A DNA stretch of 64,000 nt from an uncultured Bacilli bacterium (GTDB taxonomy: Bacteria > Bacillota_I > Bacilli_A > RF39 > UBA660), in assembly GCA_934098505.1 (NCBI GenBank), contig CAKOOR010000001.1, positions 259,027 to 323,026 of the forward strand, given 5' to 3'. The translations under genes and the position numbers were made by a program. Of the stretch, positions 34,125 through 37,296 are shown in pieces. The notes below the pieces were generated by a model that was not told the DNA's origin, made no database searches, and worked only from the letters and a program-made list of their open reading frames with translations. Positions within the stretch are counted from its first letter, which is position 1; the number at the start of each line of letters is the position of its first letter.

Positions 34125-35186
34125 ATGGCTAATGATAAGAATACTATCAAAAATATAAAAGAAGAAATACAAGTATCTAGCCTGGCACGGAAAGTTTTTA
34201 AAAAATTAGGTGTAATTACCTTAGAAGATGCTTGTCAAATTGAAATTGAACAATTACGAAATTTAGTAAAAAGCAAGGCGCAAAATCAAGTATACGTGGA
34301 TGAATTATGGGAATATGTTCATGAAAATGGTTGTTCTTTAAAAGATGAAGAAGTTTATTTAAAAAAGCTTAAGAATATAGCACTTGATTTTCCTAATATT
34401 GCTATTAGTGATTTTTTTATGAGCGTTAATGCGAGAAAATTTATGGCTGGCTATGGAACAATAACAGGATTTTTAAGTGCCTTGAAGAATAGTTCTTCTT
34501 TATTAAAAAGTTTTCTTTGCTTGGTAATTGTTTATGAAAAAGATGATAATTTAGAGAAAATTTTTAAAGGTTTTGGCAATGATGGTTTAGTTCTTGATAT
34601 TATTATTCAAGATTTTAAAGAGAATGTTAAAAAACAAGGAACTTTAATGCCTGTATATATGGTGTTTTCTGATAAACGAATTTATAATAACTTGATTAGA
34701 AATAATTGCTGGTTATTAAGCGATTTAATAAATTTAAGCGCGGAACAAATAACTAAAATCCCCCATTTAGGCGAAATTAAGGCAAAAAGAATAATAATGA
34801 CATTACATGATATGGGCTTTTCATTAGATAGTAAGTATCCGAGTTTAAGACTGAGCTTGGAATATGTGGAAACTAAAAGATTAAATTTATCACCAGAAAT
34901 TTTAACAAAATTAGAAGAAATGCAGATAACAAATCTAGAGCAATTAATAAATTTAGGTGATTTTCATAGTTTTAATGATGAAGAATTATCGCAAATTAGA
35001 AAGGAAATATTAAAATTGAATTTTCAACTTTTAGACAAAACCATTGCTATGCCTAATGAAATTTTAGAGGCACGATATAATAAATTACTAGAGGAAAGAA
35101 ATACTTTATCATTACAGATGGAGCGGGTTAATAAAGAAACTTGTAAGTACCAAAGAATATTAAATTTAACCAAAGAAGAAAAATAA
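34125..35186 (+). CDS. Protein with RNA polymerase alpha-CTD-like helix-hairpin-helix repeats
   Basis: Repeats of the form L..(K/R).L...GI.TL.DL......EL (LARKVFKKLGVITLEDACQIEIEQLRNL; ITKIPHLGEIKAKRIIMTLHDMGFSL; ILTKLEEMQITNLEQLINL…EELSQI). The ATG at 34125 follows the RBS gaagaggaag. Confidence 0.45.
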   Translation: MANDKNTIKNIKEEIQVSSLARKVFKKLGVITLEDACQIEIEQLRNLVKSKAQNQVYVDELWEYVHENGCSLKDEEVYLKKLKNIALDFPNIAISDFFMSVNARKFMAGYGTITGFLSALKNSSSLLKSFLCLVIVYEKDDNLEKIFKGFGNDGLVLDIIIQDFKENVKKQGTLMPVYMVFSDKRIYNNLIRNNCWLLSDLINLSAEQITKIPHLGEIKAKRIIMTLHDMGFSLDSKYPSLRLSLEYVETKRLNLSPEILTKLEEMQITNLEQLINLGDFHSFNDEELSQIRKEILKLNFQLLDKTIAMPNEILEARYNKLLEERNTLSLQMERVNKETCKYQRILNLTKEEK

Positions 35187-35292
35187 AATAAATTAAGAAA
35201 ATTAGAAATAACTAATTTATATAAAAGCAATAAAATTTGAATAAAGTTTTGGATAAGAAGTACTAAACTTTATGATGAGAGGAGCACAGTTT

Positions 35293-37296
35293 ATGGCAGT
35301 AGATGATTTAGATATTAGTAAAGGGGCTTTAAGAATGTTAAATATTATGGGAATTGACAATATTTCCAAATTAATAAAAATTGATGAAAAAAATTTACAT
35401 CTTTTATGTAGTCAAAACAGTTATAATCGTTATTACTTTGATGAAATATTTGCTGCTGTTAAAAATTTAGGCTTATCTTTTGTTTTTGAAAATGATTATT
35501 ATATTAATTTAGGAAGTAGAAAAGCAAATTTAGCAAATATTAGGGTTGAGGAATTAATATTAACGCCACAATTGAGAAACTTTTTAGAACCTTATGGCAA
35601 TTTAGAAGCCTTTTTTAAAGATATAGCAAATGATAATAGTTTTTATGAAGAACAAAGTAAGAAAAAATTAAAAAGATTCTTAGTGACAACTATTAAGACT
35701 AACCAAAATTATGATTGGTTAATAAATTTATTACGTCATTTGGGAAATAAAGGGGCTTTACTAGCTTTAATAATTGAACAATATATGAGCTTCTTAAACC
35801 AAAGAGAAATAAATGCTAATTCATTACTTGCTGATTTTATTACCGATAAACATATTGTTATAGCTCTTAATAAACAGGATATTTATTTCTTAGGTGATTT
35901 AGTACAACTTGATATTCAAACAGTTAGTTTGCTAAATGGGATTGGTAAAAAATCTTTAAAAACTATTCAAAATGATTTGAGCAAATACGGTTTTAAACTT
36001 GGCGAAGAATTACCTAATTATTATGATTTTACTTTTGCTTTTAATAAGTTTGATATTCGAATTTTGCATTTGCAAGAAAAGATGGAGGCCAATTTACGAA
36101 AAGTAGGAGTTAATACTTTAAATGATTTAATTGTTGTTGAATATGCGAAATATTTTTCAGACTATGACAATCAAATAATTACGGATTCTTATCGTAAATT
36201 AGGCTTTGACTGGGAAAATGCAACTTTTAATAAGACTATAAACGGTACTTATGCGGAGGCTAACGAGTGGCTCCAAGAACTAAAAAGACTTCGAGAGATG
36301 TATAGTGTAAGAATGGCTATCTTAGAGAAAAATAGTAGTTTTATTGCTCGATATTTTCCTACTACGATTCCGGTTTTAAATAATCAAAATTATCAAGAAT
36401 TAATAGGAACCACTACGGATTTAATGAGTGTTTCTTTTAAGAATTTAAAAATTCCTAGAAAAATACAAGATTATTTACAAAATTATGAAAGTCCGGCTAT
36501 CTTCTTTTATACGATTGCTAATGATAAAACTTATGAAAAAGACAAAAGTAAAAACCATTTAAAGAGATTTCTATTGAAAAATATTAAACCAGATGAGAAT
36601 TATCAAGGCCTAATTAAGACTTTAAGAAATTTAGGAAATGATGGCATTTTATTATCTTTAATAATTTTAAAATACCAAAGTTTTTTACAACAGAAAACAG
36701 TTAATTTAAATATGCCTGTTAGTAAAATTATTACTAGTAAAAAAATAGTTACTGCTCTTTTATTTTTAAACATTTATTTTATAGGTGATTTAGTTAAACA
36801 TACGAAAGATGAGTTAGTAGCTATGGAAGGATTGGGTATTAATTATCTAAAAGAAATAGAAGATGACTTAAGCAGGTACAATTATAAATTAGGTAGTTTA
36901 GCAGATAGTTATGATGATTTTAGCTTTAACATGGCTAATTTTGATATTAAAGTATTGGGACTAAGTAATGATTTAGAAACTAGATTAAGAGAAATTGGAA
37001 TTAATAATTTAGCAGATTTAATTACTTCAAAAGATAGTAAATTTTGGCTGGAGCCTCAAAATAAGGAAATTTTGTTGGCTTATCGCAAACTAGGATTTAT
37101 GCCAATGCAAGGGTTTTCTAATCCGATTGTTAATAGTAATTATAATGAAACTAATCAGTGTTTACTAGAACTAGATCTTTTAATTGCCAGGTACAATGAG
37201 TTATTAATTAAAACTTATAAATATAATATATCTTTACAAGATACTAGTAAAAGTATAGAAACTAACAGTAATAACAGTGGTTTTGGTCGTTGTTAG
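35293..37296 (+). CDS. Large protein with multiple alpha-CTD-like HhH repeats and an internal ~300-aa tandem duplication
   Basis: Repeats such as ALRMLNIMGIDNISKLIKIDEKNL, LNGIGKKSLKTIQNDLSKYGFKLG, MEGLGINYLKEIEDDLSRYNYKLG, LRKVGVNTLNDLIV, LREIGINNLADLIT. Residues ~110-370 and ~390-650 are paralogous (…KRFLVTTIKTNQNYDWLINLLRHLGNKGALLALIIEQY… versus …KRFLLKNIKPDENYQGLIKTLRNLGNDGILLSLIILKY…). The ATG at 35293 follows gagaggag. Confidence 0.5.
   Translation: MAVDDLDISKGALRMLNIMGIDNISKLIKIDEKNLHLLCSQNSYNRYYFDEIFAAVKNLGLSFVFENDYYINLGSRKANLANIRVEELILTPQLRNFLEPYGNLEAFFKDIANDNSFYEEQSKKKLKRFLVTTIKTNQNYDWLINLLRHLGNKGALLALIIEQYMSFLNQREINANSLLADFITDKHIVIALNKQDIYFLGDLVQLDIQTVSLLNGIGKKSLKTIQNDLSKYGFKLGEELPNYYDFTFAFNKFDIRILHLQEKMEANLRKVGVNTLNDLIVVEYAKYFSDYDNQIITDSYRKLGFDWENATFNKTINGTYAEANEWLQELKRLREMYSVRMAILEKNSSFIARYFPTTIPVLNNQNYQELIGTTTDLMSVSFKNLKIPRKIQDYLQNYESPAIFFYTIANDKTYEKDKSKNHLKRFLLKNIKPDENYQGLIKTLRNLGNDGILLSLIILKYQSFLQQKTVNLNMPVSKIITSKKIVTALLFLNIYFIGDLVKHTKDELVAMEGLGINYLKEIEDDLSRYNYKLGSLADSYDDFSFNMANFDIKVLGLSNDLETRLREIGINNLADLITSKDSKFWLEPQNKEILLAYRKLGFMPMQGFSNPIVNSNYNETNQCLLELDLLIARYNELLIKTYKYNISLQDTSKSIETNSNNSGFGRC

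Follow-up and report, generated by a model that had tools for sequence, protein, structure and literature searches.

Two adjacent genes, A and B, in the 64,000-nucleotide stretch of DNA analysed here (the window) are paralogues made from one module of about 300 residues, in which three homologues of the RpoA C-terminal domain (alpha-CTD), named d0, d2 and d3, are combined with d1, a domain of five helices, and with a C-terminal helix that has a heptad pattern. The analysis confirms the observation and shows a known domain in a new architecture. A holds one module and B holds d0 once followed by two copies of d1-d2-d3-helix, so that profile and fold tests recognise three alpha-CTD-homologous domains in A and five in B. 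We propose, with a probability of roughly 35%, that A and B constitute a constitutive multivalent helix-hairpin-helix (HhH) scaffold, probably a hetero-oligomer, that binds DNA with low specificity.

Gene A (34125..35186, 353 residues) and gene B (35293..37296, 667 residues) are consecutive open reading frames on the forward strand, where the promoter of the pair and all parts of A and B given below also lie, and each has a good ribosome-binding site, GAGGAAG 5′ of the ATG at 34125 and AGAGGAG 5′ of the ATG at 35293, in agreement with the two frames reported in the earlier note. A aligns with both halves of B, at E values of 7e-22 and 2e-16. A sigma-A type promoter with an extended −10 element (34071..34099; TTGTGA, 17 nt, TG-n-TAGGAT) precedes the pair, and the pattern TTGnnn-N17-(TG)nTAGGAT recurs 5′ of the A-type gene in loci L001, L003, L005, L007, L010 and L012, whose proteins are just 33-59% identical; the counterpart in L011 is TTGACT-N17-TAATAT. 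In other lineages A and B are separated by 16-28 nt or overlap. The pair would thus be a chromosomal two-gene operon, constitutively expressed, for paralogous cytoplasmic proteins, and neither a signal peptide nor a transmembrane segment is visible in the A and B sequences. At the DNA level, no tandem repeat and no Rfam family was found within or around the genes.

The alpha-CTD homology is carried by sequence profiles and predicted fold together. B matches Pfam PF03118 significantly, with 37.0 bits (E 2.8e-9; curated cut-off 23.8 bits) over two stretches, the best at residues 471-527, and A, matched at residues 185-227, stays below threshold with 19.4 bits. The HHH_5 model gives 26.7 bits for A, against a cut-off of 27, and 20.2 bits for B, both on the d2 region. 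When the family profile was compared with the PDB, 53 of the 55 matches were RpoA chains (best E 1e-7), and it is positions 167-238, namely d2, that match the RpoA alpha-CTD at E 1e-7. Because single d0 and d3 domains barely touch PF03118 (2 of 22, E 0.047), a pooled d0 and d3 profile was used, for which the RpoA alpha-CTD ranks first with full-domain coverage (1doq_A, E 2.6e-5). By hhalign, the probability is 97.6% for d2 with RpoA, 93.6% for d0 with d3 and 65% for d0 with d2. When the AlphaFold models of the two proteins are superposed on solved alpha-CTDs, a fold of four helices with two non-standard HhH motifs, TM is 0.80-0.89 and rmsd 0.9-2.2 Å over 62-74 residues, values that describe the best-matching domain only, d0 and d3 resting on helix pattern and profiles; d2 of A reaches TM 0.80 and rmsd 1.8-2.2 Å by Foldseek, and all top 50 PDB fold matches of the B model are RpoA.

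The part of RpoA concerned is its C-terminal end alone. The NCBIfam rpoA models match only over their last ~70 positions (~230-320), with 12-52 bits against cut-offs of 228-434, and Pfam gave no match to the RpoA N-terminal domain in either protein. The proposal in the earlier note that both proteins consist of alpha-CTD-type HhH repeats free of that N-terminal domain is therefore confirmed by profiles and predicted fold, and the two motifs quoted there as examples prove to come from the two best alpha-CTD copies of B, where they form the second hairpin and the last helix. The repeats are of alpha-CTD type as described, but they do not follow one uniform motif, being three homologues of unequal divergence plus d1.

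In A, whose AlphaFold2 model is compact (pLDDT 89.3, pTM 0.82), the module begins with d0 (34164..34334, residues 14-70), a diverged alpha-CTD-like four-helix domain with helices at 19-27, 33-38, 41-50 and 54-67. It continues with the family-specific d1 (34401..34634, residues 93-170), modelled with helices at 101-107, 113-122, 124-133, 142-148 and 151-169, then with d2 (34635..34829, residues 171-235), the clearest alpha-CTD homologue of A, and with the diverged alpha-CTD-like d3 (34857..35024, residues 245-300), whose modelled helices span 257-265, 271-275 and 285-297. The C-terminal long helix (35055..35180, residues 311-352) has a heptad hydrophobic pattern and is modelled as a single helix with pLDDT above 90. 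Family-wide, the hydrophobic periodicity of this terminal helix peaks at 3.5 residues with an amplitude of 4.9, against 3.4 at the neighbouring 3.6 and at most 1.6 at 2, 3, 4 and 5 residues.

Conservation in the family is highest in d1, at F130, L131, G151, N152, G154 and L157, which form invariant columns, and the G-N-D-G hairpin of d1 is the most conserved hairpin and is not basic. Among 14 d1 sequences no consistent Pfam family was found, and d1 had no match among PDB sequence profiles. The idea that d1 is sigma-70 region 4 or another helix-turn-helix was ruled out by an hhalign probability of 0.3%.

In B, whose model repeats the helix pattern twice (pLDDT 77, pTM 0.51), the single alpha-CTD-like d0 (35302..35481, residues 4-63; modelled helices 10-18, 24-27, 32-41 and 43-58) aligns with that of A. 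It is followed by two repeat copies, 35482..36306 (residues 64-338) and 36373..37197 (residues 361-635), which are 39% identical without gaps (108 of 275 residues, E 2e-64), where shuffled sequences gave 20 ± 4.3 identities and a maximum of 36; at the nucleotide level the identity is 57%. The internal duplication of about 300 residues noticed earlier is thus real, but these limits replace the ~110-370 and ~390-650 first given for it. Within the copies, the first d2 (35809..36006, residues 173-238) retains a GIGKKSL hairpin and scores 79.6 bits on the d2 profile, and the second d2 (36700..36897, residues 470-535), the best Pfam alpha-CTD match of the locus, scores 83.6 bits. A first long helix between the copies (36250..36333, residues 320-347) aligns with the C-terminal helix of A and is modelled at low confidence (pLDDT 50-62); a second (37135..37254, residues 615-654) is placed by the AlphaFold2 model of B and the alignment. 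The modules multiplied first when gene duplication produced A and B, and again when B duplicated internally.

The alpha-CTD is a textbook module, much studied for its recognition of promoter UP elements and its contact with activators, and it is usually seen solely as a tethered terminus of alpha. Its 265 determinant for UP-element DNA comprises R265, N268, N294, G296, K298 and S299 (E. coli numbering; 1LB2, 3N4M). A canonical role, in which A and B bind the AT-rich minor groove as the RpoA alpha-CTD does and gain high avidity for UP-like DNA, would suit the true alpha-CTD homology of d2, a host genome of 28% GC, the G-K-K-S of the first B module, and the Arg and Asn that d2 of the window's A carries at the R265 and N268 positions. 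However, in the d2 alignment R265 is found in only 1 of 15 domains, that of the window's A, being replaced elsewhere by N, P, M, H, S or K; K298 and S299 occur together in 1 of 15, GKKS being kept only in the first B module; N268, N294, K298 and S299 are variable across the family, leaving G296 as the sole position of the determinant that is broadly retained; and d0 and d3 have no Arg at the equivalent of R265 in their alignments. Unrelated tandem alpha-CTD proteins, by contrast, retain VR..NCL and NLGRKSL in most copies. We consider such a role improbable.

A second possibility raised at the outset was that of an RNAP-alpha decoy, in which one or more of the alpha-CTD-like domains would bind, and then titrate or relocate, proteins that dock on the alpha-CTD, e.g. 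Spx-type regulators. Helix 1 of the A-type d2 does resemble that of Firmicute alpha-CTDs: the window's A reads R-I-Y-N-N-L-I-R where B. subtilis has R261-S-Y263-N-C-L-K-R268 (checked against 1z3e_B), the Tyr equivalent to Y263 is also present in P0009, P0010 and P0011, and Y263 is reported to lie within the Spx-binding surface of the B. subtilis alpha-CTD. The neutrality of both proteins (pI 6.5 for A and 7.0 for B) would fit as well. However, the B-type d2 domains lack these Firmicute helix 1 residues, the sigma region 4 contacts (261 determinant, D259/E261) are variable and mostly non-acidic across the family, the CAP contacts (287 determinant, T285-E288) are not conserved, no Spx-like gene is linked, and a decoy would have no need of four domains in a rigid module, nor of a novel d1 that is the best conserved of them. 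Because neither the DNA-contact nor the activator- and sigma-contact residues are conserved, the readings of the earlier note as a simple UP-element binder or alpha decoy are unsupported, and we regard a decoy as unlikely.

A further point in favour of a decoy comes from a mosaic allelic patch in d0 of B (35341..35433, residues 17-47), which covers the side of d0 that corresponds to the ligand face of the alpha-CTD. Compared with strain L014, the patch differs at 42 of 93 nt and the remainder of gene B at 35 of 1908 nt; 25 of the 31 residues of the patch differ in P0003 and P0004. No second copy that could serve as donor for a diversity-generating element or gene conversion is present in the window. 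The spacer between B and xfp, considered as another divergent patch, was rejected as such, as it holds merely a small indel in a GAT repeat. In a bolder and rather doubtful reading, the alpha-CTD fold was recruited, duplicated eight-fold and re-surfaced in this gut lineage as a trans-acting partner of the transcription machinery, a hetero-oligomeric hub that captures regulators or promoter DNA, replacing or rivalling the polymerase's own alpha-CTDs. Were this so, a stand-alone poly-alpha-CTD factor would set promoter choice, in the extreme case in a lineage with a reduced CTD on its own RpoA, and the allelic cassette of the B d0 would be the sign of a specificity surface that is changing.

The A/B family is very small and was found only in uncultured human-gut Bacilli, the orthologues of A being 45-99% identical and from gut metagenomes; no member bears a protein name in its source, and there is no homologue with known function. 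The order is A-type then B-type in every locus holding both, the sole exception being a single-module gene in L011. The pair sits between smc and xfp, in a syntenic core reading rnc-smc-...-xfp-dnaB-dnaI-uppS-cdsA-rseP. Whatever the lineage, the module gene or genes immediately precede the phosphoketolase gene xfp; in the simplest loci, L005 and L011, they also immediately follow smc. This adjacency might suggest an accessory factor specific to the locus, either a regulator of xfp or an SMC partner. It is hardly informative, however, because synteny extends over the entire region and the clade is narrow; a linkage with smc and xfp cannot be told apart from shared ancestry there. Moreover, a good extended −10 promoter (37342..37371) serves xfp separately, some other lineages carry variable genes in the interval from smc to A, and we know of no regulator or SMC partner with the A/B architecture, which makes such a role very unlikely. 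In one lineage the pair is immediately preceded by an inserted ECF-type sigma gene, which was counted towards the DNA-binding reading.

At 6 kb upstream of the pair is a DUF3990 cassette with a match to a candidate defence family, and it is this cassette, together with the free-standing alpha-CTD proteins encoded by phages and the mosaic patch in B, that could point to cargo of a mobile element, a phage or an anti-phage defence system. The co-occurrence of homologues with phage or defence loci, which the earlier note had suggested checking, was nevertheless absent: A and B matched no PADLOC or PHROG model and had no relatives in IMG/VR, GenBank phages or plasmids. The pair also keeps a stable place in the core synteny and persists in loci without the DUF3990 cassette. 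A cargo role, the least probable of the roles considered, is thus largely refuted.

We return to the multivalent scaffold. HhH and alpha-CTD folds are established binders of the DNA backbone, and here the alpha-CTD-like domains would be descendants of the RNA polymerase alpha C-terminal domain. Each module is a compact body of three alpha-CTD-type HhH domains and a new five-helix domain, ending in a heptad helix. The long helices of A and B would pair, and A and B would therefore form a hetero-oligomer, in which B is in effect a covalently joined pair of modules. Pairing is favoured by the constant A-then-B order, by the short or overlapping A-B junction in other lineages and by the 3.5-residue periodicity of the terminal helix. 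The complex could then display at least 8 HhH domains that bind duplex DNA with little regard to sequence, and would serve as an architectural scaffold, associated with the nucleoid or with transcription, which would neither recognise UP elements in the alpha-CTD manner nor mimic alpha toward activators. The evidence for DNA binding is weak and indirect. Each alpha-CTD-like domain has a conserved basic residue at or close to helix 1 or the second hairpin (R22/K23/K27, R104, R192, K219, K262 and R292), and the electrostatics check found no consistently basic domain in A or B. The neutral pI, the lack of conserved canonical DNA contacts and the non-basic d1 hairpin were counted against a DNA-binding scaffold. 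Because alpha-CTD and (HhH)2 domains such as NusA AR1/AR2 also act purely as protein-binding modules, a protein-scaffold role would be about as plausible.

Compared with the RpoA alpha-CTD (PF03118; 1COO, 3N4M, 1Z3E, 1DOQ), d2 is a bona fide homologue by profile and predicted fold, and d0 and d3 are homologous more weakly but still significantly; the common layout of four helices and two hairpins is found in all three. However, A and B lack the alpha N-terminal domain for dimerisation and assembly, carry three or five CTD copies per chain together with a novel domain and a helix that resembles a coiled coil, and do not conserve the contact residues. A and B also resemble other arrays of HhH domains, such as topoisomerase V and ComEA, which serve sequence-independent DNA binding, and NusA AR1/AR2, of which AR2 binds the alpha-CTD. 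None of the three was returned as a sequence or fold match to A or B, all top PDB fold matches being RpoA. Phages encode the alpha-CTD fold outside RpoA as well (BFVD 'RNA polymerase, alpha subunit, C-terminal', ~105-240 residues; e.g. Rhodococcus phage Finch), but these proteins are small and single-domain, their sequence relation to A and B is limited to the domain, and IMG/VR and GenBank phages hold no viral member of the A/B family.

The A/B locus shows that the alpha-CTD can be duplicated out of RpoA, increase in number and be coupled to a domain that is new, in a pair of genes with a stable place on the chromosome; if the pair is merely architectural, it is a neat but modest case of domain recruitment and recurrent internal duplication. 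Unannotated proteins with canonical alpha-CTDs in tandem, in part as fusions to sigma region 4, also occur scattered across metagenomes, and if any tandem alpha-CTD protein acts on transcription in trans, an unrecognised class of transcription factors would be at hand. Literature searches found no published description of either metagenomic group and nothing relevant on alpha-CTD-like or stand-alone alpha-CTD proteins. Like A and B, these metagenomic proteins have several alpha-CTDs per chain and no alpha N-terminal domain, but their copies score 70-221 bits on PF03118, most with VR..NCL and NLGRKSL, they carry sigma region 4 and large C-terminal regions or hydrophobic N-termini, and they have nothing in common with A and B outside the alpha-CTD domain. 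The fusions to sigma-70 region 4, which is DNA-binding, are P0037, P0038, P0043, P0048, P0059 and P0062, and were counted for DNA binding; in P0030, P0036 and P0050 the arrays stand behind hydrophobic N-termini that, judged by eye, are signal-peptide-like.

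The genes A (34125..35186, 353 aa) and B (35293..37296, 667 aa), both on the forward strand, are intact, and in each a ribosome-binding site precedes the ATG assigned in the earlier note. That note had described them as consecutive proteins built of repeats of the RpoA C-terminal domain (alpha-CTD) type, and this was borne out, as B matches Pfam PF03118 (RNA_pol_A_CTD) over two stretches at 37.0 bits (cut-off 23.8) and the family profile leads to RpoA, while A stays sub-threshold in Pfam (PF03118 19.4 bits; HHH_5 26.7 vs 27). Full-length rpoA identity was not found, the NCBIfam rpoA models matching through their last ~70 positions only and far under their cut-offs. 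The RpoA alpha-CTD is the closest known entity, and, judged by sequence, A and B are members of its domain family that contain the domain, and not alpha subunits. The proposed ~300-aa duplication in B is present, with its limits now placed at residues 64-338 and 361-635, which align without gaps at 39% identity (E 2e-64; 108 identities vs 20 +/- 4.3 in shuffled sequence). At the DNA level the two copies (35482..36306 and 36373..37197) share 57% identity, which marks the duplication as old; since both halves also align with A, one ~300-aa module is present three times in the locus.

The anatomy of the module was derived from a 15-sequence alignment and an AlphaFold2 model of A made from it (pLDDT 89.3, pTM 0.82), in which d0 (residues 14-70, four helices), a one-helix linker (75-88), d1 (93-170, five helices), d2 (171-235, four helices) and d3 (245-300, three clear helices) are followed by one long terminal helix (311-352). 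In the B model (pLDDT 77, pTM 0.51), d0 is followed by the d1-d2-d3-helix pattern twice, giving five alpha-CTD-type domains in B and three in A. The d2 domain is unambiguously an alpha-CTD: RpoA accounts for 53 of the 55 PDB chains matched by the family profile (best E 1e-7), with module positions 167-238 aligning to its CTD, the hhalign probability of d2 against three RpoA CTDs is 97.6%, and in superpositions of the predicted models on solved alpha-CTD structures TM is 0.80-0.89 and rmsd 0.9-2.2 A. By profile comparison, d0 and d3 are diverged alpha-CTD homologues as well; they match each other at 93.6% in hhalign and d2 more weakly (63-65%), and their pooled profile has as top match the whole Thermus thermophilus alpha-CTD (1doq_A, E 2.6e-5), with many further RpoA chains ranking below. 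The d1 sequence matched nothing in Pfam or the PDB, and it carries the family-invariant residues F130, L131, G154 and L157 in the motifs L-K-x-F-L and L-G-N-D-G. A sigma region 4-like identity of d1 was rejected by profile comparison. Across the family, the hydrophobic periodicity of the terminal helix peaks at 3.5 residues, a value that fits a coiled coil or else a long amphipathic helix used for packing.

To examine alpha-CTD functions at residue level, all 15 d2 domains were aligned to the Escherichia coli, Francisella tularensis and Bacillus subtilis alpha-CTDs, the last verified against 1z3e_B. The DNA-binding '265 determinant' is not conserved among them: R265 is kept only in A of the window, N268 only in some A-type proteins, N294 in none, and K298/S299 together only in module 1 of B, the structural G296 alone being general. 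The positions that contact sigma region 4 (259/261) and CAP (285-288) vary as well. Since these contact residues are not conserved, in contrast to other tandem alpha-CTD proteins, A and B are neither just additional readers of UP elements nor true mimics of alpha, which gives no support to the simple form of the earlier proposal of UP-element binders or RNAP-alpha decoys and leaves its overall interpretation partly supported; canonical UP binding is accordingly improbable. A role as regulator sponge or decoy, the main rival, is somewhat less so but still doubtful: the A-type d2 helix 1, R-I-Y-N-N-L-I-R, is similar to helix 1 of the Firmicute alpha-CTD, R261-S-Y263-N-C-L-K-R268, the helix with the Spx-binding tyrosine, but the B-type domains lack this likeness.

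Phage annotations include free-standing alpha-CTD proteins, and tandem ones, unrelated to A/B, occur in metagenomes, where they reach 70-221 bits against PF03118 and, unlike d2 of A/B, keep the VR..NCL and NLGRKSL motifs in most copies; no paper on either was found. Among the metagenomic proteins (P0037, P0038, P0043, P0048, P0059 and P0062, and also P0030, P0036 and P0050), which bear 1-6 canonical copies, many are fusions with a sigma-70 region 4 domain plus a large C-terminal region, and others have N-termini that, read by eye, are hydrophobic and signal-peptide-like. A and B are set apart by the fixed four-domain module, the novel d1, the coiled-coil-like helix and the paired genes, an architecture that is new and clean.

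We propose, with a probability of roughly 0.35, that A and B could form a constitutive hetero-oligomeric helix-hairpin-helix (HhH) scaffold that would bind DNA with low specificity. The evidence for nucleic-acid binding is indirect: this is a general role of HhH folds, each domain keeps one conserved basic residue, located on its helix 1 or its second hairpin, other poly-alpha-CTD proteins are fused to a DNA-binding sigma domain, and in one lineage an ECF-type sigma gene is inserted just upstream of the pair. Against nucleic-acid binding, A and B are neutral proteins, none of their domains being consistently basic, and the best-conserved hairpin, GNDG, is non-basic.

The family is very small, with 7 (query B), 10 (query A) and 16 (profile) clusters found by word-indexed searches among 5.8 billion. 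Scanned exhaustively with HMMER, 1.84 billion representatives yielded 51 hits, ~20 with the whole module and the remainder sharing only the alpha-CTD domain; no source names any member. The four related genomes all come from Hadza gut samples and are MAGs of an uncultured Bacilli bacterium. Synteny holds in all loci examined, and wherever both genes are present the A-type is immediately followed by the B-type, with a two-module B in the window and the related loci L001, L003, L007 and L014 and a one-module B in L005, L010 and L012, while L011 has a lone module gene, with smc and xfp as its immediate neighbours on either side. A role specific to xfp or SMC is very unlikely. Modules within two-module proteins are more alike (41%, 39% and 35% identity) than same-position modules across orthologues (28-36%), and the one-module B-type P0019 is equidistant from the two modules of B (42% and 41%), which points to independent internal duplications or modules evolving in concert. 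Between strains otherwise ~98% identical, B also carries a mosaic patch at 35341..35433 (residues 17-47 in d0; L014 1396..1488), a 93-nt replacement 45% divergent, with 42/93 nt differing vs 35/1908 elsewhere in the gene and 25/31 residues changed. No donor copy lies within the window; because a second, smaller patch in the strain variant P0004 partly matches the allele found in a more distant lineage, inter-lineage recombination is the likely cause.

A predicted sigma-A-type promoter with extended -10 (TTGTGA-N17-TGgTAGGAT, 34071..34099) precedes A and is kept upstream of A-type genes across lineages in which the proteins share only 33-59% identity. In other lineages B begins 16-28 nt downstream of A or overlaps it, which suggests an operon. 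The xfp phosphoketolase gene (37397..39700), next after B, has a separate strong promoter-like site at 37342..37371, and searches for Rfam families and DNA tandem repeats came out empty.

The window is AT-rich (GC ~24-34% in 2-kb bins, mostly 26-30%), with most genes on the forward strand. In order, rnc (24118..24780) and smc (24793..27744) are directly followed by a DUF3990 gene (158 aa) with two overlapping small ORFs (83 and 67 aa; 27818..28734), possibly a toxin-antitoxin or defence cassette, whose DUF3990 protein scores 223 bits against PDC-M13A, a candidate defence family in PADLOC; in L001 a DUF3791 gene occupies this position. For A and B, the searches gave no support to the phage or defence link raised earlier, and mobile or defence cargo is the least probable reading. 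Two large tail-anchored proteins follow (28856..30910, 684 aa; 30924..32762, 612 aa), differing in their N-terminal parts (a zinc-protease-like HEFTH, of the HExxH type, vs an HD phosphohydrolase domain) and sharing a ~100-aa C-terminal region with a transmembrane tail, also found on a 434-aa HExxH protein of L001; they look like a lineage-variable enzyme family. A 191-aa protein without family match (32764..33339) and a 186-aa protein of no assigned function precede A. The former is 49-56% identical in L001 and L012, a short distance upstream of the pair (one or two genes intervening in L001 and the window), and is missing from L005 and L011. Immediately upstream of the pair in L001 (7735..8869) lie the genes of the ECF-type sigma factor (178 aa) and of a 202-aa membrane protein whose position is like that of an anti-sigma factor. 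Beyond xfp come three unassigned genes, dnaB-like, dnaI-like, uppS, cdsA and rseP. Because the window encodes a SpoIIP homologue (13030..13986, 194 bits) and MurT/GatD, the host is a walled bacterium with at least one sporulation gene, and spore formation is possible in this uncultured lineage of gut Bacilli. In L005, xfp is called as two genes (12291..14608; 242 and 530 aa), probably through a frameshift or assembly error, and the gene is intact (770 aa) in the sister contig L006.
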